Notes under the pieces: model-generated
What the model saw: only the letters and a program-made list of their open reading frames with translations
What the model was told of the DNA's origin: nothing
The model's database searches: none
Assembly: GCA_016196885.1 (NCBI GenBank)
Contig: JACPWU010000039.1
Span: 49,847 to 81,846 of the forward strand
DNA length: 32,000 nt
Source: Chlamydiota bacterium
GTDB taxonomy: Bacteria; Auribacterota; JACPWU01
Direction of reading: 5' to 3'
Position numbers and translations under genes: made by a program
Shown: positions 1,612 to 25,100 of the stretch, one piece after another
Layout of the letters: the number at the start of each line of letters is the position of its first letter
Numbering within the stretch: position 1 is the first letter of the stretch

Positions 1612-2652
1612 ATGATTACAAAAGAAGACATTATCAATCAATTGCGTCATGTCCATTATCCCGGCTTCACCCGAGACATCGTATCTTTCGGTGTGATCCG
1701 GGACGCTATTTTTGAAAATGGACGTGTCGAGATTGTGCTTTCTTTTACGACAGAGGCACCTGATAAACGAGGCCAAATTCAAGAAGGGATTCGAAAGGCG
1801 CTTTCTTCCTTGCCCGAAGTGAAGGAAATAAACTTCAAGGTGGTTGATATTCCTCAGGGCTCCCCTCGGGATCGGGCCATGCTGGAAAGAAAAGAAATTC
1901 CAGGGGTGCGAAATGTCATCGCTGTGGCCAGTGGGAAGGGCGGTGTTGGAAAATCAACGGTGGCGGTGAATTTGGCCTGTGCCTTAAAAATGTTGGGAAG
2001 AAAAGTGGGCCTTTTAGATGCGGACATTTATGGACCGAGTATTCCCATCATGATGGGGCTTTACGATCGGCCTGGGTTGGCGGAAGATCAGAAATTCATT
2101 CCCCCTCAAAAATTTGGTTTGGCGATGATGTCTCTGGGGTTTTTTATAGAAGGGGATAGCCCGGTGATTTGGAGGGGACCCATGGTGACGGGTGCCATTC
2201 GCCAATTGCTTTATGATTCTCAATGGGGAGGGTTAGACGATTTGGTCGTGGATCTTCCCCCGGGGACAGGGGATGCTCAACTCACCTTGGTTCAATTGGC
2301 GCCGTTGAAGGGGGCTGTGATTGTGACCACGCCTCAAGACGTGGCTTTGGTGGATGCCCGCAAAGGGGTTTCCATGTTTCAAAGGTTAGAGGTCAAAATT
2401 TTTGGGATTGTGGAGAACATGAGTTATTTTATTTGTCCTCATTGCCAACATGAGACAGATATTTTGAGTCGCGGGGGAGGAAAGAGAGAAGCCGAACGCT
2501 TGAGTGTTCCTTTTTTAGGTGAAATTCCTATGGATTCTAGTATTTGCTCTGGAGGGGATGGGGGGGTTCCTATTGTGATTCAATCTCCAGAGTCTGAGGT
2601 GTCAAGAGCTTTTCTCCATTTAGCGCAGTCGGTTGTAGGACAGCTAAGTTAG
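1612..2652 (+). CDS. apbC: Mrp/NBP35-family iron-sulfur cluster carrier ATPase with N-terminal DUF59-like domain
   Basis: N-terminal DUF59-like segment (HVHYPGFTRDIVSFGVI), deviant Walker A ASGKGGVGKST, the DLPPGTGD motif and the CPHC cysteine pair. The length of 346 aa is typical for the family. Confidence 0.9.
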   Translation: MITKEDIINQLRHVHYPGFTRDIVSFGVIRDAIFENGRVEIVLSFTTEAPDKRGQIQEGIRKALSSLPEVKEINFKVVDIPQGSPRDRAMLERKEIPGVRNVIAVASGKGGVGKSTVAVNLACALKMLGRKVGLLDADIYGPSIPIMMGLYDRPGLAEDQKFIPPQKFGLAMMSLGFFIEGDSPVIWRGPMVTGAIRQLLYDSQWGGLDDLVVDLPPGTGDAQLTLVQLAPLKGAVIVTTPQDVALVDARKGVSMFQRLEVKIFGIVENMSYFICPHCQHETDILSRGGGKREAERLSVPFLGEIPMDSSICSGGDGGVPIVIQSPESEVSRAFLHLAQSVVGQLS

Positions 2653-2682
2653 AATATTCTTATTTCTTCAGATTCTTTTTTG

Positions 2683-2712
2683 TTGCAATTTTTATCACCA
2701 AGGTTTTATAGT
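2683..2712 (+). promoter_or_regulatory. candidate sigma70-type promoter upstream of the DUF4912/GH57 genes
   Basis: TTGCAA (2683-2688), an 18-nt spacer, then TATAGT (2707-2712), about 70 nt upstream of ATG 2784. This is a motif match only. Confidence 0.25.
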
Positions 2713-2783
2713 AGTCCCAATAGGAGGTTGAATGTGTTTTCCACACTTCAAACGCTTCTTATATTTGGTGAACGAGGGGGTTC

Positions 2784-3785
2784 ATGGAAAAGAAAACTTT
2801 TCAGGGGAAAAAAGATGTTACTCAAGAGAAACCGTCCGTTGTTGCGGAAGTTCCTAAAAGTTTATCCTCTGAAAAATCCCCTTCCAATTTAGTCCAACCA
2901 GATTCTGTTTTAGAAACTCACGCACAGGAAACTGTCGAAGATTCCAAGTTCTACATGGCCCAACAAGGTTGGCCTCTCCCGATGCCGTCTCGGGATCTTG
3001 CTTACGATTATGGAGATAATCGCATCGTTTTAATGCCCGTGGATTCTTTTTGGGCTTTCAGTTATTGGGAAGTGACGAAGGAGCGGGTGGAGGAGGGGCT
3101 TCGTTTCTTGGGGTGTTCGCTCGATCAAACGAAGACCGTGCTGCGGGTTTATGATGTGACGGGACTCGAGGGGACAGAGGGCTCTCATCATCATTATGAC
3201 GTGGAGCTTTCGGGAAGGGTCCGGAATTGGTATTTGAATTTGAACGCACCGGACCACTCTTTCAGGGTGGATATTGGTTTAAGAAACCGAGAGGGCCGCT
3301 TCTTTACCTTGGCGCGTTCCAATACCGTTACCATGCCCCGGGCGGGTGTTTCGGATGTGGTAGATGAGCGCTGGATGAGCATGGAATTTGAAAAGATGTA
3401 CGCCCTTTCCGGAGGGCTTAAAGTAGGTGAGGGTTCGATCGAGCTTCGTCAATTGATGGAGAAGCGTTTTCAAGAAGGTTTATCTTCCGGGGCGCTCTCC
3501 AGTTTCGGGTCCAGTCCCGTGAAGAGAATGGAAAAATCCTTTTGGTTTGTTTTGGATACAGAGCTCGTTGTCTATGGTGCGACAGAGCCTGATGCGCATG
3601 TCACCGTGGCTGGACAACCGGTTCAATTGAGGCCCGATGGCACTTTTACCTTGAGACTTGCATTACCCGACGGTCGCTTTCCCATTTCAGCAAAGGCTGA
3701 GTCCTCAGATGGTAGAGAGGAAAGAACGATCACACCTGTTGTTCAGAGGAACACGGAAATTTCCCAACCTGTTCTTAAAAGCTAG
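2784..3785 (+). CDS. DUF4912 domain-containing protein
   Basis: Contains the motif IVLMPVDSFWAFSYWEV. It lies directly upstream of a GH57 gene, which is the usual DUF4912 context. A GAGGGGG Shine-Dalgarno sits about 5 nt before the ATG. Confidence 0.65.
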   Translation: MEKKTFQGKKDVTQEKPSVVAEVPKSLSSEKSPSNLVQPDSVLETHAQETVEDSKFYMAQQGWPLPMPSRDLAYDYGDNRIVLMPVDSFWAFSYWEVTKERVEEGLRFLGCSLDQTKTVLRVYDVTGLEGTEGSHHHYDVELSGRVRNWYLNLNAPDHSFRVDIGLRNREGRFFTLARSNTVTMPRAGVSDVVDERWMSMEFEKMYALSGGLKVGEGSIELRQLMEKRFQEGLSSGALSSFGSSPVKRMEKSFWFVLDTELVVYGATEPDAHVTVAGQPVQLRPDGTFTLRLALPDGRFPISAKAESSDGREERTITPVVQRNTEISQPVLKS

Positions 3786-3864
3786 TCGTGAGTTGTTAGT
3801 TGTGAGTCGTTAGTTTTAAGGGTATTTATTTTTTACTCACGACTCACCCCTCACGACTCACGAC
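3785..3864. repeat. long hairpin, arms of 7-nt GTGAGNN / NNCTCAC units, conserved loop
   Basis: Left arm gtcgtgagttgttagttgtgagtcgttag, loop ttttaagggtatttattttttac (3814-3836), right arm tcacgactcacccctcacgactcacgac. The element starts on the last base of the upstream stop codon. Confidence 0.8.
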
Positions 3865-5464: not shown

Positions 5465-5597
5465 AGAAATCCAAAATCCAAAAATCAAAATCCAAAATGA
5501 CAGTCCAAAAATCAAAATTTTTCAATGCAACAACATCAGGGACATTTTGGATTTTGGTGTGTCATTTTGATTTTTGATGTTTGATTTTTGGATTTCT
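5465..5597. repeat. long hairpin with ~53-nt arms of AAATCCA / TGGATTT units, between convergent genes
   Basis: Left arm 5465-5517 (aaatccaaaatccaaaaatcaaaatccaaaatgacagtccaaaaatcaaaa). Right arm 5545-5597 is its imperfect reverse complement. It starts 1 nt after the GH57 stop, and the right arm overlaps the 3' end of the PAP2 gene. Confidence 0.8.
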
Positions 5598-6591: not shown

Positions 6592-6729
6592 GGCATATGC
6601 ACTTGATTCCCCTTTGTAGTCGCCCGATTCATCGGGCAAACCCATGCAAGGGGCACAGCCCCATGAATGGGGCGACTACAACTTCTTGCCATGGCGCTTG
6701 TTATCTAAGGGGAATCAAGTGCATATGCC
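6592..6729. mobile_element. MITE-like non-autonomous element with perfect 21-bp terminal inverted repeats, carrying REPIN copy 1
   Basis: TIRs ggcatatgcacttgattcccc (6592-6612) and ggggaatcaagtgcatatgcc (6709-6729) match at 21 of 21 positions. The direct repeat aaaatagtttt flanks the element at 6580-6590 and 6730-6740. There is no coding capacity. Confidence 0.7.
6614..6681 (-). repeat. REPIN-like doublet of GTAG-palindrome (REP-like) units, copy 1 (inverted relative to copies 2 and 3)
   Basis: Sequence: ttgtagtcgcccgattcatcgggcaaacccatgcaaggggcacagccccatgaatggggcgactacaa. Its reverse complement aligns closely with copy 2. Confidence 0.8.
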
Positions 6730-6818: not shown

Positions 6819-7826
6819 ATGTTTCTCGTTCGCAGCATTGAGAAAAGAGATTTGAGTGCGTTCTTTCGCTTGGCTTCCATTCTTGATACTTATAATCTTC
6901 CCAAAGATAAAGAATTACTCGCCCAGATTATTCAGACCTCTTTAAATTCTTTTAAAGGAAATCTTAAAAACCCTCATGAAGGTCGTTTTGTGTTTGTGGC
7001 CGAGGAGTTGAGTTCTGGAAAGATTGTGGGCACTTCTGAAATTTTGGCAAAGCGAGGTCTGCCTCATAATCCTTTCATTTACTGTGATGTGGGGGAGGAT
7101 TGTTTAAAGAGTCGGACCCTTCATAAAGAAGTGAAACACCGATATATTAAACTTTGCTCGACTTTGGATGGAGCCACAGAGATTGGAGGGTTGGTGGTAG
7201 ATCCTCGTTATCGGGGGAAGGGGAGAGGCGTGGGAAAGGCCTTGTCTTATGTGCGCTTTATGTATATGAAGTTTCATCCCAGAAAATTTCAGAAGAGGGT
7301 GTTGGCAGAGCTTTTGGCTTATTTGACCCCGAAAGGGGAGAATCCCCTGTGGGATGTTTTAGGAAAACATTTTACGGGTCTTTCTTATCATCGGGCGGAT
7401 CGTTTGAGTGTTTTTAACAAAGAATTTATTTTGTCCTTGTTCCCTGCTGAGAAAATCTACACCTGTCTTTTGCCGGAGCGTGTTCAGAGAATTTTAGAAC
7501 GGCCCGGGCTTCATACTGTTCCCGCTCAGGTTTTACTGGAGAAAATTGGGCTTAAATATTTGCGTCAAGTGGATCCATTTGACGGGGGGCCCCTCTATGG
7601 AGCAAAGTTGAGTGATGTAACGATTTATCAAAAGACGAAGCTCTACCCTTTTTCTGGAATGTGTGAAGAAGGCAAAGAGGGCTTGCTTCTTTTTGAAGAA
7701 TCATCCCGTGTGAAAGCCTGTTATGGTTTAGCAAAAATAATGGGTGAAAATATTTTTCTTAATCTTGAATCAGTGCGGGCTTTAAATATCCGCAAGGGGA
7801 ATAGAGTTTTGTTTTATCGTTTTTAA
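6819..7826 (+). CDS. arginine N-succinyltransferase (AstA) family protein
   Basis: From ATG 6819 the N-terminus MFLVRSIEKRDLSAFFRLAS parallels the AstA N-terminus. The ~335 aa length and the GNAT-like core GGLVVDPRYRGKGRGVGKALS also fit. The track start 6786 is a TTG 11 codons upstream. Confidence 0.75.
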   Translation: MFLVRSIEKRDLSAFFRLASILDTYNLPKDKELLAQIIQTSLNSFKGNLKNPHEGRFVFVAEELSSGKIVGTSEILAKRGLPHNPFIYCDVGEDCLKSRTLHKEVKHRYIKLCSTLDGATEIGGLVVDPRYRGKGRGVGKALSYVRFMYMKFHPRKFQKRVLAELLAYLTPKGENPLWDVLGKHFTGLSYHRADRLSVFNKEFILSLFPAEKIYTCLLPERVQRILERPGLHTVPAQVLLEKIGLKYLRQVDPFDGGPLYGAKLSDVTIYQKTKLYPFSGMCEEGKEGLLLFEESSRVKACYGLAKIMGENIFLNLESVRALNIRKGNRVLFYRF

Positions 7827-7882
7827 CGAACGACGATGAACAAACGACGCAGAACGGTTTTGCTATGAAAGTGAGGCTCATT

Positions 7883-7954
7883 TTGTAGTCGCCCCATTTA
7901 TGGGGCTGCCGTGTGCCCCTTGCATGGATTGCCCGATGAATCGGGCGACTACAA
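7883..7954 (+). repeat. REPIN-like doublet, copy 2
   Basis: Sequence: ttgtagtcgccccatttatggggctgccgtgtgccccttgcatggattgcccgatgaatcgggcgactacaa. It is nested in a 12-bp outer inverted repeat, tgctatgaaagt (7861-7872) / actttcatagca (7974-7985). Confidence 0.8.
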
Positions 7955-8017
7955 AAAAAGCATGATTGGGAGAACTTTCATAGCACACGATGATCTCGAA
8001 AGATCATTAAAATTTAT

Positions 8018-8941
8018 ATGAGAGCTCTGGTTGTAGGGGATCCTTCTTTTTTTAGAATTAGATCGGGGTCTAATCCTCATACTCGAAACAGATGGGGAGT
8101 GAAGAAGTGTGTAGATTTGGATTTAGCCAAGCGCCAATGGAAGAATTTTGTAGATCGTTTAGAAGAGATGGGTGCTCGGGTGTATGTGATTCCTCCTGTG
8201 AAGGATTGTCCCGGAATGGTTTTCCCCGCGAATGCAGGGGTTGTGATTCCAAGGGAAGAAAAGATTCCCTTTTCTAAAAAAACTTTTCTCTTAAGTTCAT
8301 TGATCGAAGGGCGCAAAAGTGAAACGAATTATGACGAGCCTTTTTTTCGCCAATTGGGTTTTCAAATTGAGAAGATTTCTTGCCCCTTTGAGGGGGAGGC
8401 CGATTTTTTCCAGGCAGGGTCTTATTTTATTTTTACATATGGGAAGATTCTCCCTCAACATTTTCGGATGAAGAGGGGGTGGCCACCTTATGAAAGAGTC
8501 TATGGGTTTAGAAGCAGTTTGAATTTCTTAGAGACGGTGACGAAATGGATTTCTCGCGAGCGCATTTTGCCTTTGGAATTGGCGGATGAACGATTTTATC
8601 ATGGCGATACGGTTTTTTGCCCATTTGGAGAAGGCTATGATCATGTGCTTGCCTATCTACCAGCCCTCACGTCTCAGGCTCAAGGTTTGTTGAAAGAGCA
8701 TCTCGTCGATCGCTTGATTTTGTTGAGTGATGAGGATGCCTTTAAATACGCAGCAAATTCTTTTTATTTATCCACAGAGAAGGGGAAATTTCTTATCATG
8801 CCTTCGGGTGTGAGTCCCCAGTTAAGGGATCAGGTGATAGAACGGGGGGTGACTCCCATCGAGATCAATGTGTCTGAATTTTTCGAAAAAGGGGGAGGCT
8901 CTGTCAAGTGTATGATTTTAGACTTGGGGCCGATGGGTTAA
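8018..8941 (+). CDS. amidinotransferase / dimethylarginine dimethylaminohydrolase-like guanidino-group-modifying enzyme
   Basis: C-terminal GGGSVKCM carries the catalytic-Cys motif of the GME superfamily. FYHGDTVFCP supplies the His/Asp motif, and PGMVFPANAG is also present. Confidence 0.7.
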   Translation: MRALVVGDPSFFRIRSGSNPHTRNRWGVKKCVDLDLAKRQWKNFVDRLEEMGARVYVIPPVKDCPGMVFPANAGVVIPREEKIPFSKKTFLLSSLIEGRKSETNYDEPFFRQLGFQIEKISCPFEGEADFFQAGSYFIFTYGKILPQHFRMKRGWPPYERVYGFRSSLNFLETVTKWISRERILPLELADERFYHGDTVFCPFGEGYDHVLAYLPALTSQAQGLLKEHLVDRLILLSDEDAFKYAANSFYLSTEKGKFLIMPSGVSPQLRDQVIERGVTPIEINVSEFFEKGGGSVKCMILDLGPMG

Positions 8942-8943
8942 GA

Positions 8944-9015
8944 ACAGTTGTGAGTGGTGAGAGGTGAGTTTTAAAGGTATTATTTTTTTACTCACCCCTC
9001 ACCCCTCACGACTGT
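8944..9015. repeat. long hairpin, GTGAGNN / NNCTCAC units, conserved loop (cleanest copy)
   Basis: Left arm acagttgtgagtggtgagaggtgag, loop ttttaaaggtattatttttttac (8969-8991), right arm tcacccctcacccctcacgactgt. About 21 of 24 positions are complementary. It is followed by TTTT. Confidence 0.85.
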
Positions 9016-9640: not shown

Positions 9641-9704
9641 TAGCGTTCAGCATTCAGCGTACAGTTTATAAGGAATAATTTTTTTCCTGAACGCTGAACG
9701 CTGA
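9641..9704. repeat. hairpin, TTCAGCG / CGCTGAA units, conserved loop
   Basis: Left arm tagcgttcagcattcagcgtacag, loop tttataaggaataatttttttcc (9665-9687), right arm tgaacgctgaacgctga. It lies 5 nt after the cheW stop. Confidence 0.8.
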
Positions 9705-9718
9705 AAAAGGGGGGGGAT

Positions 9719-11100: not shown

Positions 11101-11218
11101 CCGTACATCGTGCATCGTACTTCGTACTTCGAATACCGTGCAATCGCAATTTCGTTGTTACGATGTTCGATGTTCGCTGAACGATGTACTGCCTTTAAGT
11201 ACGATGCACGATGCACTG
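11101..11218. repeat. long imperfect hairpin of ACATCG/CGATGT-type units
   Basis: Outer stem gtacatcgtgcatcgtac (11103-11120) pairs with gtacgatgcacgatgcac (11199-11216) at 17 of 18 positions. The inner parts are unit arrays related, in inverted orientation, to the element at 20785-20887. Confidence 0.7.
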
Positions 11219-11705: not shown

Positions 11706-11710
11706 GGAAA

Positions 11711-11818
11711 GACAGTCGTGAGTGGTGAGTCGTGAGGGGTGAGTTTTATAGGTATGATTTTTCACTCACGACTCACCCCTCACGACTGTTTTACTCTTAC
11801 TCACCCCTCACGGCAGTT
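11711..11818. repeat. long hairpin, GTGAGNN / NNCTCAC units, conserved loop, with a duplicated right arm
   Basis: Left arm 11711-11743, loop ttttataggtatgatttttcac (11744-11765), right arm 11766-11789 with ~25 bp near-perfect pairing. A second partial 'TTTTAC + tcttactcacccctcacggcagt' copy follows at 11790-11818. Both right arms are followed by T4-5. Confidence 0.85.
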
Positions 11819-14283: not shown

Positions 14284-14470
14284 ATAATGTGCCAATGTGA
14301 TGGCAATAGCAGTGAAACAATATTTGATGGTTTTCTTTAACCCCTCCAGCTCCCCTTTCCCACAGGGACTATAAGAGCTTGAAATAAGGGGAGGGCTCCC
14401 CTCTTATTTCAAGAGGTTATAGTCCCCGTGGGAAAGAGGGGTTGGGGGAGTTATTTCATTGGCACATTAT
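14284..14470. repeat. nested inverted repeats filling the whole mcp-cheA intergenic space
   Basis: Outer inverted repeat aataatgtgccaatg (14284-14298) pairs with cattggcacattat (14457-14470). An inner ~57-nt-arm imperfect palindrome is centred near 14395 (..cccctttcccacagggactataagagcttgaaataaggggag / ctcccctcttatttcaagaggttatagtccccgtgggaaagagggg..). Confidence 0.8.
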
Positions 14471-17580: not shown

Positions 17581-17628
17581 AACATTCATGCCGACTGAGG
17601 TCGGCACAAAAGGGGATGAAAATCACCC

Positions 17629-17704
17629 TTGTAGTCGCCCCATTTATGGGGCGGTCTATGACATTGTGGCATTGGGCATTGCCCGATAAATCGGGCGACT
17701 ACAA
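17629..17704 (+). repeat. REPIN-like doublet, copy 3
   Basis: Sequence: ttgtagtcgccccatttatggggcggtctatgacattgtggcattgggcattgcccgataaatcgggcgactacaa. The termini match copy 2 but the spacer differs. Confidence 0.8.
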
Positions 17705-17749
17705 GTCATCATGAGTCATTGTATAAGAATGACTAAAGACTATTTTCAG

Positions 17750-17826
17750 GTGAAAAGTGAAGAATGGATAGTGAAAAGTGAAAAATTGAAAACCCGTTAA
17801 CATTTTTCACTTTTCATTTTTCACTC
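17750..17826. repeat. hairpin of GTGAAAA / TTTTCAC units
   Basis: Left arm gtgaaaagtgaagaatggatagtgaaaagtgaaaaa, loop ttgaaaacccgttaaca, right arm tttttcacttttcatttttcactc. It lies upstream of cheB. Confidence 0.75.
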
Positions 17827-17843
17827 TTAATTATTGAAAAACT

Positions 17844-18887
17844 ATGATCCGCGTCCTCGTTGTTGAAGATTCACTCCTAGAAACTAAATTAATTTCCGAA
17901 ATCTTGGGTTCGGATCCTGACGTGACTGTGATCGCAGTGGCTCGAGACGGAAATGAGGCCATTGCCCAAGTTGAAAAATTGCGTCCAGATCTTGTGACGA
18001 TGGACATTCACATGCCCAAAATGGACGGCCTTGAAGCGACCAAGCAAATCATGGCTTATCATCCCACGCCCATCTTAGTCTTGAGCTCTTCTATTTTTAG
18101 CCGAGGTGCGGACAAAGCCTTTAAGGCGATGTCTTATGGTGCATTGGATGTTGTAGAAAAGGCTTTTTTTAAAGGGAAAGAATTAGACGAGGTCTGGAGA
18201 AAGGAATTTCTTGAGAAGGTTAAATTTCTTTCCAAGATCAAGGTCATTCCTCACCCCTTGGCCAAACTCGAGAAAGGTTTTAAACACGCGGATCTTCCTC
18301 CTATTTGCGCCAAGACAAGCGGGGGAATGAAAATTGTCGCCATGGTTGCTTCCACGGGCGGTCCGCAAGCCCTTCTTGAAATTCTCAAATCACTCCCCAA
18401 AAATTTTCCTGCCCCTTTGGTTTTGGTTCAGCATATTGCCTCGGGTTTTACGGAAGGGTTTGTGAAATGGTTATCGGATCAGACACAGGTGAAAGTCAAA
18501 ATGGCGCAGCAGGGGGAAGCTTTAAATCCTGGCGTTGTCTATGTGGCCCCTTCAGGTTTACAGATGCGTGTGACCCCAACGCACAAAATTGAGTTGAAGG
18601 ATGATCCGCCGTATGATGGCCTTCAACCATCGGGCACGGTGCTTTTGAAATCTGCGGCCTTGGCCTTTGGAAATCAGAGCCTCGGCGTCGTTTTATCTGG
18701 GATGGGAAAAGACGGAGCAGAAGGGTTAAAGTGTATTTACGAAACCAAAGGACATACCCTTGTCCAGGATGAAATGAGCTCCGTTGTTTATGGGATGGCC
18801 AAGGCGGCCATGGATCTGGGTGTGGTACATGAGGCTTTGCCCCTCAGTGAAATTGCGAGTAGGATTATTAAGTGGGTAGGTGCTTAA
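17844..18887 (+). CDS. cheB: protein-glutamate methylesterase CheB (REC + esterase)
   Basis: N-terminal REC (IRVLVVEDS..DLVTMDIHMPKMDG) plus a CheB esterase domain (VAMVASTGGPQAL, LSGMGKDGAEGL). Confidence 0.9.
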   Translation: MIRVLVVEDSLLETKLISEILGSDPDVTVIAVARDGNEAIAQVEKLRPDLVTMDIHMPKMDGLEATKQIMAYHPTPILVLSSSIFSRGADKAFKAMSYGALDVVEKAFFKGKELDEVWRKEFLEKVKFLSKIKVIPHPLAKLEKGFKHADLPPICAKTSGGMKIVAMVASTGGPQALLEILKSLPKNFPAPLVLVQHIASGFTEGFVKWLSDQTQVKVKMAQQGEALNPGVVYVAPSGLQMRVTPTHKIELKDDPPYDGLQPSGTVLLKSAALAFGNQSLGVVLSGMGKDGAEGLKCIYETKGHTLVQDEMSSVVYGMAKAAMDLGVVHEALPLSEIASRIIKWVGA

Positions 18888-18950
18888 GTGTCTAAGTGTT
18901 TAAGTGATAAGGAAGGATTTTTTTACTTAAGCACTTAGCACTTACGCACT
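18880..18950. repeat. hairpin of TAAGTGNN / NNCACTTA units, conserved loop
   Basis: Left arm gtgcttaagtgtctaagtgtttaagtga, which includes the cheB stop codon. Loop taaggaaggatttttttac (18908-18926), right arm ttaagcacttagcacttacgcact. Confidence 0.8.
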
Positions 18951-19420: not shown

Positions 19421-20815
19421 ATGGAACTTTCGCTGGAGGTGTTTCGTCAATTTCAAAGATTTTTGGTGGAGGAGTCAGGTCTTTATTTTTCAGAGGATCG
19501 AAAAGCCTCCTTACAGCAAAAATTAGATGAGCGAATCAGAATTTGCGAACGAGCCACCTATGAAGAGTATTTTCATTATCTCAAATTTCATCCTCAGGGA
19601 CGGCTTGAATTAAAAGCCCTTCTCGATCTTCTCACGATTGGTGAGACCTATTTTTTTCGCAATGAACCACAGTTCGAGGCCTTGAGGGATTATGTGTTGC
19701 CAAATATTCTTAAAGAGAAGAAGGACACTTTAAGGATTTGGAGCGCAGGCTGCTCTACCGGGGAAGAGCCTTATTCGATTGCCATGCTTTTAAGGGAACA
19801 TCTTACCTTCTTTGAGAACTGGGAAATTTCCATTTTAGCCACCGATATCAATCAAAATGTTTTGAAGGCTGCTCAAGAGGGTATTTACAACGCTCGGGCC
19901 GTTCACGCCATGCCTACAGAATATCTTCAGAAATATTTTGTTCAAAAGGGACAGAAATTTTGGATTTCGGAAGAAATAAAAAAAATGGTGCAATTTCAAT
20001 ATCATAATTTAGTTCGAGATCCCTTCTCTTTGCCTCTCATGCAAAATCTAGACATTCTCTTTTGCAGGAATGTAATCATTTATTTTAACATCGAGACGAT
20101 TCGGCGTATCCTTTCTCAGTTTGCAGAGTGCCTCCTGACGGACGGATTTCTTTTTGTGGGACACGCAGAGACCTTGTGGAATCTCTCGGATGATTTTAGC
20201 CCCATCGAATTTCCTCAGACATTTCTTTATCAGAAAACAGAGGGTCCCGCTTCAAAACGTTCTCGACCTCCCGAAATTTTATTACCGAGTTTTGAAAAGG
20301 TAGATGAAGATGTGCCGATGGACCGATGTGCCCATGTGCCAATGAAAAAAAAGGACAGGCGTTCATCGGCACATCGGCACATCGGCACATGGGTACAAAT
20401 GATGTCTCAAGCCGTTCATTTGGCAAACGAGGGAAGGTATGAAGAGGCTCTGATCGGTGTTGAAAAAATAATTCATGAGAATAACCTCCATCTTCAGGCC
20501 CATTTTTTAATGGGGGTTCTCTTGGCGAAACTTCATCGTTATGAAAAGGCGGTGAAGCAGTTTGAGAGGGTGCTCTACATTGATGAGAAAATGTCTATTG
20601 CCTATTTTCATCTGGGACATTTGTATCGCCTGACGGAGAAATTTGAAAAAGCGAAAAAGGCTTATGAAAATTGTCTGAATATTTTGGAGAAAAAAAAGGT
20701 AGATGAAATAATCCCTTTTTCGGAAGGCTTGACCGTGGGGGTTTTGAACGAGGCGACGCATCGGGCCTTGGAAACGCTTAAAGACAGTACATCGTACAGC
20801 GAACATCGTACTTAA
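19421..20815 (+). CDS. cheR: chemotaxis protein methyltransferase CheR with C-terminal TPR region
   Basis: CheR N and SAM-binding domains are present (ETYFFRNEPQF, RIWSAGCSTGEEPYSIAML, ILFCRNVIIYF). The C-terminus has TPR-like repeats (YEEAL..NLHLQAHFLMGVLLAKLHRYEKAVKQFERVLYID..AYFHLGHLY). It starts 4 nt after the cheW stop. Confidence 0.9.
   Translation: MELSLEVFRQFQRFLVEESGLYFSEDRKASLQQKLDERIRICERATYEEYFHYLKFHPQGRLELKALLDLLTIGETYFFRNEPQFEALRDYVLPNILKEKKDTLRIWSAGCSTGEEPYSIAMLLREHLTFFENWEISILATDINQNVLKAAQEGIYNARAVHAMPTEYLQKYFVQKGQKFWISEEIKKMVQFQYHNLVRDPFSLPLMQNLDILFCRNVIIYFNIETIRRILSQFAECLLTDGFLFVGHAETLWNLSDDFSPIEFPQTFLYQKTEGPASKRSRPPEILLPSFEKVDEDVPMDRCAHVPMKKKDRRSSAHRHIGTWVQMMSQAVHLANEGRYEEALIGVEKIIHENNLHLQAHFLMGVLLAKLHRYEKAVKQFERVLYIDEKMSIAYFHLGHLYRLTEKFEKAKKAYENCLNILEKKKVDEIIPFSEGLTVGVLNEATHRALETLKDSTSYSEHRT
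20309..20396. repeat. hairpin of 4 x 8-nt units per arm (GATGTGCC / CATCGGCA) located inside the cheR coding sequence
   Basis: Left arm 20309-20344, loop aaaaaaaaggacaggcgtt at 20345-20363, right arm 20364-20396. It is translated in frame as DVPMDRCAHVPMKKKDRRSSAHRHIGTWV in the linker between the CheR and TPR domains. Confidence 0.8.
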
Positions 20816-20887
20816 GGACAGTACATCGAACATCGAACATCGTGATTTTGTTGTTGCGATGTACGAAGTACGAAGTCCGATGTACGG
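20785..20887. repeat. imperfect hairpin of ACATCG / CGATGT-type units overlapping the cheR 3' end
   Basis: Left arm cagtacatcgtacagcgaacatcgtacttaaggacagtacatcgaacatcgaacatcgtga; its first 30 nt encode the CheR tail STSYSEHRT plus the stop. Right arm gcgatgtacgaagtacgaagtccgatgtacgg, followed by TTTT and an AGGAG Shine-Dalgarno. Confidence 0.7.
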
Positions 20888-20902
20888 TTTTAGGAGAACG
20901 TT

Positions 20903-22198: not shown

Positions 22199-25100
22199 AT
22201 GCCCTTTTTTAGAAAGATCATCAGTCTTTTTCTCTGCCTTTCTTTAAGTCTCAATGAGGCTTGGACCTGGGCTCAGGAAGCACCTCTTTTTAGCCATTTT
22301 CTAGAAAATTTCAAGATTCCTCACGTATTAGGAGAAACAATTGAGAAATGTATCTTTCCGGGAAGGCCTTTGCTTTTCATCCTTGAGGATATTCATGCTC
22401 AAACGGAGGTCCAAAGGAATCTCGAGGGCATTTTAAAAGCGCTTCAATCTCTCAATCAACATTTGAATCCTGGTTCTCATTTCAAGGTGTTTGTGGAGGG
22501 AGCCGTGGGTCTCATGGATATGAGTTTTTTTACGAGCTTCCCAGAGGATCAAGCCTTCCGTATGGCTCGGAAAAGTTTTCTCGAAAAAAATGAAATCACA
22601 GGGGCTGAATCTTTCTTGATGAGTAAAGAAGGGCAAAAGTCTGAAGGATTTGGAGTGGAAGATTTTGATGCGTATTGGAAGAACGTGGAGTGGATGGGAA
22701 AGTTGATGGAGGGACAAAATCGCCAAGAAAATGAATGGCAAAGTTTGGAGCAAACTTTAAAGGCTTTGCGCCAGAAAGTTTATTCAAAGGAGTTGAGAAC
22801 ATTGAGTGAGAAGAAAGAGGCCTATGAAGAAGGAAGAGTAGGAATAGAGGGGTATGTAACTTTTCTTTCTTCTTTTACCGGATCTCTTGCCCCCATGATT
22901 CAGAAATTTCTCGCATTGAAAGATCTAGAGTCGCGTATCGATCATGGAAAAGTAGATCAAGAATATTTGTCCTATTTGGAAGTTTTGGAGAAGAAACTAT
23001 CTGAAGAAGAAGTGAAAGAGTTATTGAAAAATATTTTGGAACATCGTTTGGGAAAGGTGAGGGATGAGGATCATTACCTTTACTTGAAGCAGTATGATGA
23101 AAGGGTCAAGGGTCAAGGGTCAGGGGTCAAGAAATTCAGAAATTTAGAATTGCTTTTTGAACAGATGAAACTTTTAAAAGAAATATCGTGGAATCGATTG
23201 CAGTCTGAGGTGAAGGCATTAGAGAAACAGTTGATAAATCGGTGGGCAATAAGCTCAGGGGCCAAGGCGTTGATCGAACTGGAAGAAGATTATGGCTTGT
23301 TGAAGCGAGTGGTTTCGATGGAAGGGAAGAGAGAAGACATAAAGACAGTGTTCAGCGTACAGCGTGTAGCGGACAGGGAAGACAGGACCGGTGTCATTGA
23401 CCTTCGTCATTTCGTTCATCGTCTAAAAATTCTTGCTCAAGAAAACGATGTGGCGTTTGAAGACCCTGATCTTTACGAAACCTTTCAAATGGCCTCTCAC
23501 TTTTACGAGCAAGTTCTAAAACGGGATGGAATTTTTTGTGAAAAAATTTTGGATCAGATGAAGGATGAAAAAAATTCTTGTGCGGCTTTTGTGGTCGGAG
23601 GCTTTCATGCGGATGGCCTCAAAGAAAGGTTAAAGGAGGCCAAAATAGGTTATTGGATTGTGGCTCCTCGTTTTGTAGGACGTGAAAATCGCTCTTTTTA
23701 TTTTCAAAAGATGAAGGAAAAATTTGAAGAGAGGGAAGTGCTTAAGAAAACGCTTTCTTTGCCAGCCCAAACCAATGAAGGGATTGCTACGGATAGGGCT
23801 GTTTTTGAAAAAGCTCACGAGGGTTTTGCCCGAACGTTGGTTGGATGCGTGCTGAGAATCAATCCGCAGAGATTAGACAGGACATTTTTTGGGAAGTGGG
23901 AAGCGGGGATCAATGACCGAGGATTAAAAGGAATGATTCTAAAAATGAGAGACGGATGTCTCTCTCGTGATTCGAGCGCTCATCGGTCTTTTCTTGGGAA
24001 GAACTGGTTACAAGAAAGAAAAGAATGTAATGCAGAAATTCTAACGTCGATGAGCCCTGATGAATTGAAGGGCTCATCGAGAACGGTATCGATGCAAATC
24101 CCCCAATCTCTTGCTGCTGCAACTCGGCATGGATTGGGAGAGGCTTTGTCAGAAGCGGCTTTGAGGGACATTGCGGACGAGAGCCAGGCTCGTCCTGTGG
24201 AAGCAGGGGAGTTCGACCCTATTCTAAATCTTTTAAGCGAGGTCCAGAGTCGGGCGTCTCCTGAAAATAGAATAGATGCATTGAAATTGAATGAATTGGT
24301 AGATGCGGTACGATCAGGAATAGCATCAGGCCAAATTGAATTTTATCATCAACCTCATCCTTATCGTCCTGATTTGGCTGCGTTCGCACGACGTGGTGAA
24401 CATGGCCGACTTCGAATCTATCTTTCCGGCGATTTAGCTATTTCTTCTGAGGGAGAATTTACGCTTCAACATCTCTATGCCCTCGTTGGCTTTTTTCATG
24501 AGGCTCATGAGCAAATCACATTGGCCCGGCAATATCCCTCTCTTGATCCCCGCATTCGTCATCGCATGGCAGTTTATGATGAGGCGCGGCTGATGCAGAC
24601 TTTGCAAGGGAGGCTGCCCAGCATTCTTCGTCATCCTGTGCTGAGTCCTCTCACGGTGCATGAGCTTTGGCGGATGGATGATGAAACTTTAAGTGAAGTG
24701 GCTCAGAATACGGCATTAAAACTTTCCGAGCATGCGGTCGATTTTGAAAGCATGCCCGAATATCATCATGCGGCCGAAGCTTATACCCGGGCTGTAGAGG
24801 ATGATGAGAAAAGTTCGGATCGGAGGGGAGAAAATCTTAATTATGTGTTTTCAAGTGGTTTAGGAAGAAGTGTTCAAACTTTAGCATTGAACCTGGGTGC
24901 GCTTCGAAGAAGATCAAATGTTGGGGATTTGGTTATGGTACTTCCTCCTACCGGAGAAAGGGATCCGGCTCAGGTATACGTTCGAATGAACGGCTCAATG
25001 AATGTAAGTTTTCCCATCGATTCTGAACTTAGTTCAATTTTTGCCTTTCATCGCATTTATTCCTTAAAAATCCCTGCGGGTTTTCAAGCGGAACTTATTC

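Follow-up and report, generated by a model that had tools for sequence, protein, structure and literature searches.

A reading frame for a CheR methyltransferase joined to a TPR region carries an inverted array of short units that is translated in the interval between the two domains (Table 1). The window (the whole 32-kb stretch of DNA that was analysed) belongs to an environmental Chlamydiae MAG. The domain limits proposed in the initial annotation agree with Pfam, where the CheR match ends at nt 20215 and the first TPR-type match begins at nt 20411. In an AlphaFold model the CheR domain closes with a strand at aa 268-272, helices (H316-422) cover the TPR region, and both domains are confidently modelled; pLDDT is below 50 at aa 293-317, in the linker. 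The protein is identical in two records, MBI1883280.1 and MBI3266797.1 ('Chlamydiae bacterium', HYS08_03635). Assemblers can create or collapse hairpins and short repeats, and the source is a metagenome-assembled genome, but an assembly or amplification artefact is extremely improbable. The independent Logan assembly of SRR12113387 has the same sequence across 6089 nt, the frame is intact with a downstream TPR domain that can be aligned to orthologues, and elements of this kind are found across the window as well as in other genomes.

The element, referred to here as the CheR-linker hairpin, consists of 8-nt units, TGCCGATG on the left and its inverse CATCGGCA on the right, with 4.25 units per arm. 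Its boundaries were set by comparison with related elements, giving a 34-nt arm, a 19-nt loop, and a second 34-nt arm, or 29 codons in all. Among the 34 arm positions there are 28 Watson-Crick pairs and one G.U pair. The left terminus is TGTGCC and the right is GG(G)TACA. Tandem Repeats Finder (TRF) reports 3.4 copies with 100% matches in the right arm. The sequence had previously been read as GATGTGCC GATGGACC GATGTGCC CATGTGCC AATG at 20309-20344, a loop AAAAAAAAGGACAGGCGTT with an A8 run, and three copies of CATCGGCA followed by CATGGGTA and C at 20364-20396, all translated as DVPMDRCAHVPMKKKDRRSSAHRHIGTWV; each of these readings is correct. The flanks of the hairpin hold GATG and ATG motifs.

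Table 1. Features of the CheR-TPR gene, its hairpin, and related repeats in the window
Feature	Position	Strand	Basis or remarks
CheR-TPR ORF, 464 aa	19421..20815	+	ORF list; in-frame carrier of the octamer hairpin
CheR_N	aa 8-58 of the CheR-TPR ORF	+	Pfam
CheR SAM-binding methyltransferase domain	19643..20215, aa 75-265	+	Pfam PF01739, E 2e-62
CheR-linker octamer hairpin	20311..20397		87 nt, in frame, between CheR domain and TPR region
Left arm, 34 nt	20311..20344	+	TG + TGCCGATG-type units: TGCCGATG, GACCGATG, TGCCCATG, TGCCAATG; degenerate
Loop, 19 nt	20345..20363	+	A8 at 20345-20352, then GGACAGGCGTT; codes for KKKDRR(S)
Candidate slippery heptamer A_AAA_AAG, zero frame	20347..20353	+	Codons AAA AAA AAG; dnaX-type
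Right arm, 34 nt	20364..20397	+	CATCGGCA x3, perfect, + CATGGGTA + CA
TPR region	20411..20713, aa 331-431	+	Pfam TPR_1/2/8/12 and ANAPC3 matches
Next unit-array hairpin, h9, ACATCGA/CGATGT heptamers	20777..20888	+	Overlap with the final 13 CheR codons
GTAG-tagged REP-like doublets, true type	6614-6681, 7876-7961, 17628-17705

Unit-array hairpins are abundant in the window and are mostly intergenic. The 32 kb have 13 arrays with a period of 7 or 8 nt. This density of 40.6 per 100 kb is about 12 times the 3.5 per 100 kb in a background of 1.24 Mb from 80 unrelated bacterial loci taken from the genome-collection scan with CheR-TPR. Intergenic DNA makes up 8% of the window and contains 11 of the 13 arrays, and only two are inside ORFs; of the 15 spacers that reach 60 nt, 12 contain strongly folding elements. 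The hairpins h0 to h9 are inverted 7-8-nt arrays with about three to five units per arm, a description that also fits the CheR-linker hairpin. The earlier claim that the latter has the same architecture as the intergenic hairpins stands for the roughly four units per arm and for the loop with a homopolymer run, but not for the loop sequence or the unit length, which is 8 nt rather than mostly 7 (the h8 unit is likewise 8 nt). These loops, of about 15-25 nt, contain an A or T homopolymer run next to an arm; the A8 run of the CheR-linker copy comes just after the left arm, whereas in the intergenic copies T6-7 precedes the right arm, and AAAAAAAAGGACAGGCGTT bears no relation to the consensus of the intergenic loops (TTTTAAAGGTATTATTTTTTT or ATTTYGTTGTT). 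The loop shares the 8-mer AAGGACAG with the h9 flank, but this motif has four matches with 1.1 expected, and a link was rejected as too weak. Apart from the CheR-linker copy, the octamer family has no further members visible in the 32-kb window, which, like the unrelated loop, counts against taking the CheR-linker hairpin for one of a repeat family.

The CheR-linker hairpin also differs from the intergenic h0 to h9 in lying within an ORF. Four of its six frames are free of stops, while most intergenic hairpins are blocked in all or nearly all frames, and it is among the few in the genome without stops in most frames. The hairpin h9 occupies the spacer up to the next gene, and the tail of CheR that it overlaps (aa 457-464) has pLDDT below 50 and lacks a counterpart in most orthologues. 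A search with an idealised arm peptide gave 79 candidates, nearly all of them ORFans of 44-87 aa above intergenic arrays; since it missed both known in-frame cases, it is unusable for counting in-frame occurrences. For cyanobacteria, Elhai and colleagues reportedly described in 2008 STRR heptamers and small dispersed repeats set within inverted heptamer arrays, in which some 20-27 nt of conserved core lie between inverted tandem heptamers. That design, a conserved loop with variable arms, resembles the intergenic family described here, in a different phylum. In-frame translation is not known for these cyanobacterial repeats.

The CheR-linker hairpin shares properties with several known repeat systems but differs from each. 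Rickettsia palindromic elements (RPE; Ogata et al. 2000, as outlined in PMC10969869) are in-frame palindromic repeats in unrelated protein genes. In both cases a palindrome is in frame at a permissive site, adds a peptide, leaves the protein intact, and is read as selfish DNA. RPE form families of about 100-150 bp with conserved sequence and encoded peptide and are confined to Rickettsia; the CheR-linker hairpin, likened to them by description, has 87 nt, arms of tandem 7-8-nt units, a loop that is not conserved, and an environmental Chlamydiae host. Xanthomonas genomes have 70-75 inverted pairs of heptamer SSRs each (GGGAATC), mainly intergenic (Rehm et al. 2015, PMC4692102). These are also abundant pairs of short convergent arrays of the 7-nt class that can form a stem-loop, but a single G-rich unit, discussed as forming G-quadruplexes, is used genome-wide, whereas here there are many units and the CheR-linker copy is a translated octamer. 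Long SSRs of prokaryotes are enriched in 5-11-nt units, put down to polymerase slippage (Mrazek et al. 2007, as cited in PMC4692102 and PMC4679880), and TAACTGA heptamer repeats are present in Beggiatoaceae, with only one inverted case reported from Beggiatoa. Like the arrays in the window they are mostly intergenic, and copies in ORFs must avoid stop codons; they are direct arrays, while here paired inverted arrays with a loop define the element.

REP and REPIN sequences are likewise short, dispersed hairpin formers that fill intergenic spacers; they are mobilised by RAYT transposases (PMC3116915), and REPs carry a GTAG or CGTC tag (PMC3733652) at one end of an imperfect palindrome of 20-40 bp. 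The CheR-linker hairpin has neither a GTAG/CGTC end tag nor a palindrome free of tandem units. The GTAG at 20300-20303 was rejected as a tag because it precedes the left arm by 8 nt, which is the wrong place, and has no right-hand partner. None of the proteins in the window matches PF01797, the Y1 (RAYT) transposase family; a PF01797 match is present at one locus (L086) of a related MAG.

The peptide encoded by the hairpin is specific to this lineage and lies in a linker with little constraint. It is found in none of the 22 aligned CheR-TPR orthologues, in agreement with the proposal that about 29 residues are a lineage-specific addition. Linker length in the orthologues is hypervariable (37-99 aa). 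The suggestion that the element inserted into or expanded within the linker and was tolerated is supported by this absence, by the predicted disorder and the variability of the site, and by a parallel case in chorismate synthase described below; it may have been either insertion or expansion, as the nearest orthologue is just 54% identical. Without the 29 hairpin codons the linker would have 26 aa, 11 aa below the orthologue minimum. This indicates replacement of the ancestral linker or growth in place, and because deletion of the 87 nt leaves a linker that is too short, insertion by itself would not account for the full history. In-frame linker arrays are rare rather than a family trait. One orthologue, P0007, has about 15 in-frame heptamers of its own in the linker that its relatives P0004 and P0005 lack, and it alone shows a clear 7-aa repeat among the 120 best homologues scanned for periodicity. 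In the genome-collection scan with the CheR-TPR alignment, the matches listed included only distant CheR genes and no Chlamydiae relatives.

Octamer hairpins of the same design occur on other contigs, in two cases within protein-coding genes. Four loci (L100, L107, L136, and L147) match the CheR-linker hairpin in the TGCCGATG unit, its phase, the 34-nt arms, and the termini TGTGCC...GGCACA; the 34-nt length applies to copies with four units, and L136 has more. The right terminus GGGTACA of the CheR-linker copy differs from GGCACA by one substitution and one extra G, and the irregular unit GGACC is common to it and L147. A 33-nt loop, TTTTTTAAATGGAGGGTGATGGATTTTATTTTA, is conserved in the octamer hairpins, except that L107 has a different one, and the 19-nt CheR-linker loop is unrelated to it. 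The L147 hairpin is in frame in a chorismate synthase gene of an unrelated bacterium with 57-60% GC, where the 101-nt element is a clean insertion specific to its lineage, adds about 24 aa net to a variable surface loop, and is missing from eight orthologues. Its peptide, CADVPMCRCADV...ARRHIGPSAQ, is nearly identical to that of the CheR linker. The closest chorismate synthases to that of the 57-60% GC lineage, at about 60% identity, are from Deltaproteobacteria/Myxococcota MAGs. At L107, also assigned to the 57-60% GC bacterium, the octamer hairpin and at least five other array hairpins are in frame in a genuine type I FAS of 3330 aa, mostly between Pfam domains.

These parallels raise the possibility of a separate class of mobile or self-propagating element that has yet to be described, made up of the octamer hairpin (TGTGCC-(TGCCGATG)4-loop-(CATCGGCA)4-GGCACA) and its heptamer cousins, which distant phyla would share and which a dedicated mechanism would make or move. 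Such a class would keep its arm length and phase fixed in a Chlamydiae MAG, the 57-60% GC bacterium, and probably Verrucomicrobiota, and would routinely write peptides into the linkers and loops of CheR, chorismate synthase, and type I FAS. In one version, A_AAA_AAG and the arrays would also let CheR switch, in a programmed or heritable way, to a methyltransferase without TPR. The literature search found no paper with these unit arrays as text and no report of such elements from Chlamydiae. This explanation is unlikely. Against placing the CheR-linker hairpin in a repeat family at all, TGCCGATG is also a frequent one-directional microsatellite, with a tract (VNTR) of more than 500 nt in Burkholderia stagnalis, and 91 of 99 metagenome loci with the unit have no inverted arm. 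As the unit is so widespread in one-directional SSRs, its likeness across phyla may be convergent.

Growth in place would account for the hairpin by a local process in which replication slippage multiplied short units on both sides of an ancestral A-rich lysine run, with no insertion of the hairpin as a whole. Intrastrand template switching (quasi-palindrome correction) would keep the arms complementary and overwrite linker codons. Two orthologues have A-rich lysine runs at a linker position similar to that of the hairpin loop, EEKKKEE in P0002 (GAA AAG AAA AAA GAA) and PEKKERR in P0005 (GAA AAA AAG), but this alignment is uncertain at 50-54% identity. The implausibly short linker without the hairpin fits such growth, as do the net gain in chorismate synthase, which is smaller than the element and implies replacement, and the GATG/ATG motifs in the flanks. 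The perfect repeats in the right arm next to a degenerate left arm are what recent slippage in one arm would give. However, arm length, phase, and termini match those in unrelated genomes, one of which also has the irregular GGACC, and this is unexpected if the copies arose independently. A purely local origin is rather doubtful, and we infer that the hairpin arrived as, or was converted into, a member of the family.

The hairpin is statistically real and folds strongly, but its folding does not point to a function in RNA. Its predicted RNA MFE is -52.0 kcal/mol, compared with -28.4 +/- 3.3 in dinucleotide shuffles (z -7.2, 0 of 200). Codon-order shuffles gave -27.3 +/- 3.6 kcal/mol, so that the native arms are far more stable than the controls proposed in the initial annotation, and synonymous-codon resampling gave -31.9 +/- 4.5, with the native value reached in 0 of 1000. 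No 114-nt segment elsewhere in the ORF is as stable as that of the hairpin; the median for the ORF is -22.8. The stem could be an RNase III-type substrate or a ribosome roadblock that uncouples the CheR and TPR parts or segments of the operon, since an imperfect 34-bp stem of this stability is within the size range of RNase III substrates. In Haemophilus influenzae, a heptamer-SSR hairpin with at least 11 units in the hmw 5'-UTR is phase-variable and cleaved by RNase III (PMC12721329). There too a tandem array of short units makes up an arm of a long RNA hairpin with imperfect pairing, but the other arm is not an inverted array and the site is a 5'-UTR; the CheR-linker hairpin is inside an ORF and has arrays of four units in both arms. 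In a related MAG, heptamer arrays flank a 23S-rRNA-IVS-protein gene on both sides. Several intergenic hairpins are more stable on the transcribed strand through G.U pairs (h8, -35.9 versus -25.7 kcal/mol), but the CheR-linker hairpin has no strand preference (-51.5 versus -50.4), and the asymmetry was rejected as a sign of RNA-level selection. The whole window had no Rfam covariance-model match at the gathering threshold, and the promoter and terminator scan found no signal at the hairpin and no T-run past 20397. Such stems are unwound by translating ribosomes, and equivalent hairpins are found repeatedly within essential single ORFs (FAS and chorismate synthase), where cleavage would be harmful. 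A role as an RNA device is thus quite improbable.

Switching of the reading frame is very unlikely to be the function of the hairpin. Slippage of the 8-nt units would yield a CheR protein of 310-337 aa without TPR, and so would a -1 frameshift or slippage during transcription at A_AAA_AAG. As in SSR contingency loci, the tract is in an ORF and its unit is not a multiple of three, so one unit more or fewer in the left or right arm is predicted to truncate the protein and leave the CheR domain whole. The dnaX-type heptamer is in phase in the loop, with a predicted 337-aa product in the -1 frame, and P0005 also has an in-phase A_AAA_AAG. Three to four units per arm is short for a contingency locus, though, and no difference is seen between the two assemblies or between the two protein records. 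The only strong structure near the heptamer is the downstream arm paired with the upstream arm, which would already be unwound; the CATCGGCA array cannot pair with itself, so there is no independent stimulator starting about 5-9 nt downstream. AAA AAG is frequent by chance in lysine-rich linkers of AT-rich genomes, and essential enzymes also contain the octamer hairpin; a switch in these would be lethal. Regulatory roles of the hairpin in general, as an RNase site, a ribosome pause, or a frameshift switch, look unlikely.

The CheR-linker hairpin is probably a palindromic repeat element that has been tolerated in the linker and is translated as a low-complexity spacer of 29 aa, and it is most likely selfish DNA and not a regulatory device. 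It would belong to a set of small palindromic repeats with arms of inverted 7- or 8-nt unit arrays that saturate the intergenic spacers of this genome, one copy of which would have come to sit in the structurally unconstrained linker between CheR and TPR. It can persist there because it has no stop triplet in the frame used, because its net length of 87 nt preserves the reading frame, and because the linker accepts almost any sequence of suitable length. We infer that it is selectively neutral or selfish and has no dedicated role for CheR. Its final residues may have been recruited to begin the first TPR helix.

Palindromic selfish DNA in coding genes is best known from Rickettsia, and CheR and its parallel cases show the same outcome in lineages that are free-living or environmental. 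The element is built differently there, with arms of tandem 7-8-nt units. Such elements break short-read contigs and yield spurious small ORFs, and they add odd low-complexity stretches rich in Cys, His, and Met to otherwise conserved enzymes, so they should be kept in mind during annotation. The paired arrays, fixed arm length, and many units per genome make a tractable system for studying how inverted microsatellites originate and remain complementary. Interdomain linkers and surface loops may serve as landing pads that turn non-coding repeats into protein, which would be a route to new peptides. In CheR, the right arm already appears to contribute to the beginning of the first predicted TPR helix.

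The hairpin in the CheR-TPR gene (HYS08_03635) is best read, with moderate confidence, as a selfish repeat tolerated in an interdomain linker. Comparison with related elements sets its natural limits at 20311-20397, with two 34-nt arms around a 19-nt loop, AAAAAAAAGGACAGGCGTT. These 87 nt are exactly 29 codons, translated as DVPMDRCAHVPMKKKDRRSSAHRHIGTWV (residues 297-325). The left array (20309-20344) has 4.5 copies of an 8-nt unit with the consensus GATGTGCC, and the inverted right array (20364-20396) has three copies of CATCGGCA without mismatch, followed by CATGGGTA. Among the 34 arm positions, 28 form Watson-Crick pairs and one a G.U pair. The arrays, loop and coordinates described in the initial annotation matched exactly on re-reading, and its placement in the linker agrees with Pfam, since the element falls between the CheR match (to residue 265) and the TPR-type matches (from residue 331).

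The structure of the hairpin is more than chance. As RNA the element folds at -52.0 kcal/mol, where dinucleotide shuffles give -28.4 +/- 3.3 (z -7.2), and as DNA at -27.5 kcal/mol compared with -13.0 +/- 2.4. The native fold also beats the codon-shuffled controls proposed in the initial annotation: synonymous resampling with the window's own codon usage gave -31.9 +/- 4.5, with none of 1000 sequences as low as the native one, and shuffles of codon order gave -27.3 +/- 3.6. No other stretch of the ORF is as stable (median of 114-nt windows, -22.8). An assembly artefact is ruled out by a Logan assembly of run SRR12113387, identical to the window across 6089 nt, and by two NCBI protein records with the same protein. 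The Logan contigs of this run stop beside the REP-like repeats (window 17727) and the intergenic hairpin h0 (about 1025), yet continue through the CheR hairpin, suggesting that the REP-like and h0 families are multi-copy in this genome and the CheR element low-copy.

The linker is permissive, and the peptide is specific to this lineage. When 23 CheR-TPR proteins were aligned, the comparison that had been suggested at the outset, no orthologue carried it. Between the conserved residues Pro289 and Ala343 the aligned proteins have 37 to 99 residues, and this one has 55. In an AlphaFold model from this alignment both domains are confident (mean pLDDT 83.7); pLDDT is below 50 precisely at residues 293-317 and at the CheR C-terminal tail (457-464), and the right-arm residues 316-325 begin the first TPR helix. 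The proposal that an element had inserted or expanded in the linker and was tolerated most likely stands as to tolerance; the element may have arisen by insertion or by growth in place. The closest orthologue is just 54% identical, so that no empty site can be defined. Excising the 87 nt leaves a readable linker, ...FEKVDEEMMSQAVHLANEG, of 26 residues; because every orthologue is longer here, either the ancestral linker was presumably replaced or part of the element may have grown from it. Growth in place is compatible with the A-rich lysine runs of orthologues P0002 (EEKKKEE) and P0005 (PEKKERR), which lie at a position similar to that of the A8 loop (KKKDRR), but at such divergence the likeness is not decisive.

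Judging from the homologues, in-frame linker arrays are rare and lineage-specific, yet the CheR-TPR linker is a repeated landing place, hit independently in another lineage. P0007, an orthologue from a JGI metagenome, has about 15 tandem in-frame heptamers (GAGTCAT, GGGTCAT, GAGTTGG) in the same linker, encoding HELGDMGHELGDMGHELGVMSHELGVMGHESRVMSHE, and one loop of its N-terminal domain has a further small insertion that is array-like. Neither insertion is present in the relatives P0004 and P0005, and P0007 alone has clear periodicity of this kind among the 120 best homologues.

The octamer hairpin is also found in other genomes, in places within enzymes. A 22-mer of the right arm has exact matches in 99 metagenome contigs (37-75% GC). 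Most of these hold one-directional microsatellites; in eight, as in CheR, an inverted array lies upstream. Four loci (L100, L107, L136, and L147) agree in unit phase and in their termini, TGTGCC...GGCACA. The arms are 34 nt, as in CheR, in L100, L107, and L147, while L136 has the CheR octamer unit and termini but extra units. L147 has the irregular unit GGACC of the CheR element, and three of the four loci have a common 33-nt loop that the window copy lacks. L136 comes from a different contig set than L100, L107, L147, and L150, which belong to one metagenome (Ga0209515, 57-60% GC) and have 57 arrays per 100 kb; these arrays fall into several unit families, and every family has a conserved loop of its own. 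The chorismate synthase of L147 (4023-5480) has three array-derived insertions. Its hairpin adds about 24 residues net, as an insertion, to a loop that is short in each of the eight aligned orthologues, and it encodes CADVPMCRCADVKANPSFSVKKTSARRHIGPSAQ, nearly identical to the CheR element peptide. L107 (3384-13373) encodes a genuine type I fatty-acid synthase of 3330 residues with the octamer hairpin and at least five other array hairpins in frame. Most of them lie between Pfam domains or at domain edges, with one array inside the DH-region match; three of the hairpins are members of a single GTCGCCG/CGGCGAC family whose loop is conserved. In Burkholderia stagnalis (NZ_CP156686.1, L188 1233-1752), (TGCCGATG)n runs in one direction for >500 nt, which shows that the CheR unit is also a common octanucleotide microsatellite in Betaproteobacteria.

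The window itself is dense in unit arrays. Its source is a metagenome-assembled genome that is filed under the name 'Chlamydiae bacterium', and its chemotaxis cluster encodes CheW, MCP, CheA-CheW-REC, a double REC protein, CheB, CheW, CheR-TPR, and a REC-histidine kinase. A periodicity scan found 13 arrays of 7- or 8-nt units (40.6 per 100 kb; 25 per 100 kb with an inverted partner), compared with 3.5 (1.0) per 100 kb in a background of 80 unrelated bacterial loci (1.24 Mb). Eleven of the 13 are intergenic, and intergenic DNA makes up 8% of the window. Of 15 spacers with a length of 60 nt or more, 12 are filled by strongly folding elements, and ten intergenic hairpins with inverted arrays of 7-8-nt units as arms (h0-h9) occupy nearly all spacers of the cluster. 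By their sequences these hairpins are dispersed repeat families, beyond mere shared style. Arms and loops are common to several copies: h0, h1, h3, and h6 (GTGAGTC/ACTCACG-type arms, loop TTTTAAAGGTATTATTTTTTT); h5 and h9 (ACATCGA/CGATGT units, loop ATTTYGTTGTT); and h2 (AAAATCC units), whose homology to a copy at a non-orthologous site of the Chlamydiae MAG locus L086 extends to the loop. Besides AAAATCC, the other arm units are GTGAAAA, TTCAGCG, and TAAGTGTC. Only two of the 13 arrays lie within ORFs, the CheR hairpin and a one-sided array in a giant ORF (23099-23131; AAGGGTC x4.4 in frame, peptide ERVKGQGSGVKK), which has no inverted partner and forms no hairpin.

Coordinates of the CheR-TPR protein, its domains, and the repeats compared with its hairpin
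Feature	Position	Strand	Remarks
CheR-TPR ORF	19421-20815	+	464 aa
CheR_N	aa 8-58 of CheR-TPR		Pfam
CheR SAM-binding domain	aa 75-265 of CheR-TPR		Pfam
TPR-type matches	aa 331 onward in CheR-TPR		Pfam
Ten intergenic unit-array hairpins	975-1044, 3783-3864, 5467-5595, 8946-9013, 9646-9705, 11102-11216, 11710-11790, 17753-17835, 18868-18950, 20777-20888		
GTAG-tagged REP-like doublets	6614-6681, 7876-7961, 17628-17705		GTAGTCGCCCCATTTATGGGGC ... GCCCGATGAATCGGGCGACTAC
Giant ORF	22199-32000, runs off window		>3267 aa; sole Pfam match HTH_8; 3' of chemotaxis genes
P0007 array insertions	L082 465-500 and 1053-1162		

Several other features accompany the arrays. The full chemotaxis cluster of this Chlamydiae-filed genome has CheA, CheB, CheR, three CheW, and an MCP with a dCache domain. 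Unit arrays also form C-terminal tails, providing the end codons of CheB (18868-18887), CheR (20777-20815), and a minus-strand PAP2 gene (5536-5595). The GTAG-tagged REP-like doublets are a second repeat family, unrelated to the unit arrays and REPIN-like in look; no RAYT gene is found in the window. Between the MCP and CheA genes is an inverted repeat (14338-14453) with 54-nt arms, 81% complementary, an 8-nt loop, and no short units, and this spacer folds with a z of -11.5. In L086 (GCA_016178055.1, contig JACOUC010000017.1), a 23S-rRNA-intervening-sequence protein gene (PF05635) lies between cheA and cheB (7451-8018) as the 'loop' between heptamer arrays, 22 units of TGTGGAA/TGTGCGA and inverted CACATTA/CACATCG, a layout that recalls an rRNA intervening sequence; a Y1 transposase gene is also present (2124-3119). 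Two of the 80 background loci are outliers. L059 (Verrucomicrobiota MAG) has eight arrays in 9 kb, among them inverted GCGGAAC/GTTCCGC pairs and units of AAATCC that resemble h2, and L065 (Obscuribacterales MAG) has TAACTGA-type heptamers, as described in Beggiatoaceae. These outliers suggest that the phenomenon is patchy, with a possible link to the PVC superphylum.

The CheR element resembles known repeats in effect or in construction. In effect it is like the Rickettsia palindromic elements, selfish palindromes that have inserted in many genes without breaking the frame (PMC10969869). In construction it is like the inverted heptamer-repeat pairs of Xanthomonas (PMC4692102) and, in a wider sense, prokaryotic long simple sequence repeats. 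REP/REPIN identity is ruled out, as the element has no GTAG/CGTC tag; true GTAG-tagged doublets occur elsewhere in the window. A terminator and a curated RNA family are rejected, since a promoter/terminator scan and Rfam gave no terminator, promoter, or Rfam signal at the element. Neither such elements in Chlamydiae nor these unit sequences turned up in a literature search.

A function at the RNA level has a precedent in a repeat-armed RNase III hairpin of Haemophilus (PMC12721329). The CheR copy may have such a function but gives no hint of one: it folds alike on both strands (-51.5 and -50.4 kcal/mol), and CheR-type elements lie within essential enzymes, where cleavage would be harmful. Several intergenic hairpins fold better on the transcribed strand via G.U pairs, which hints at a role in, for example, processing or stabilisation for those copies. 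A frame switch between full-length CheR-TPR and a TPR-less CheR is conceivable, as gain or loss of one unit is predicted to give proteins of 310-337 residues with the CheR domain intact and no TPR, and A_AAA_AAG is in phase within the loop. The shortness of the arrays, the identity of the available assemblies, and the lack of an independent downstream stimulator count against it, and switching, too, would be harmful in the essential enzymes.

The persistence of a tolerated repeat in this ORF can be explained by its units, its site, and its length. An 8-nt unit visits all three frames per 24 nt, so an array stays open only when every rotation of its unit is free of stop triplets. TGCCGATG and CATCGGCA have no stop triplet in any rotation. 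The CheR element is stop-free in four of the six frames; in most of the intergenic hairpins every frame, or nearly every one, has stops. Stop-free units, a permissive linker, and a frame-preserving net length are together enough to explain why the element persists in the ORF.
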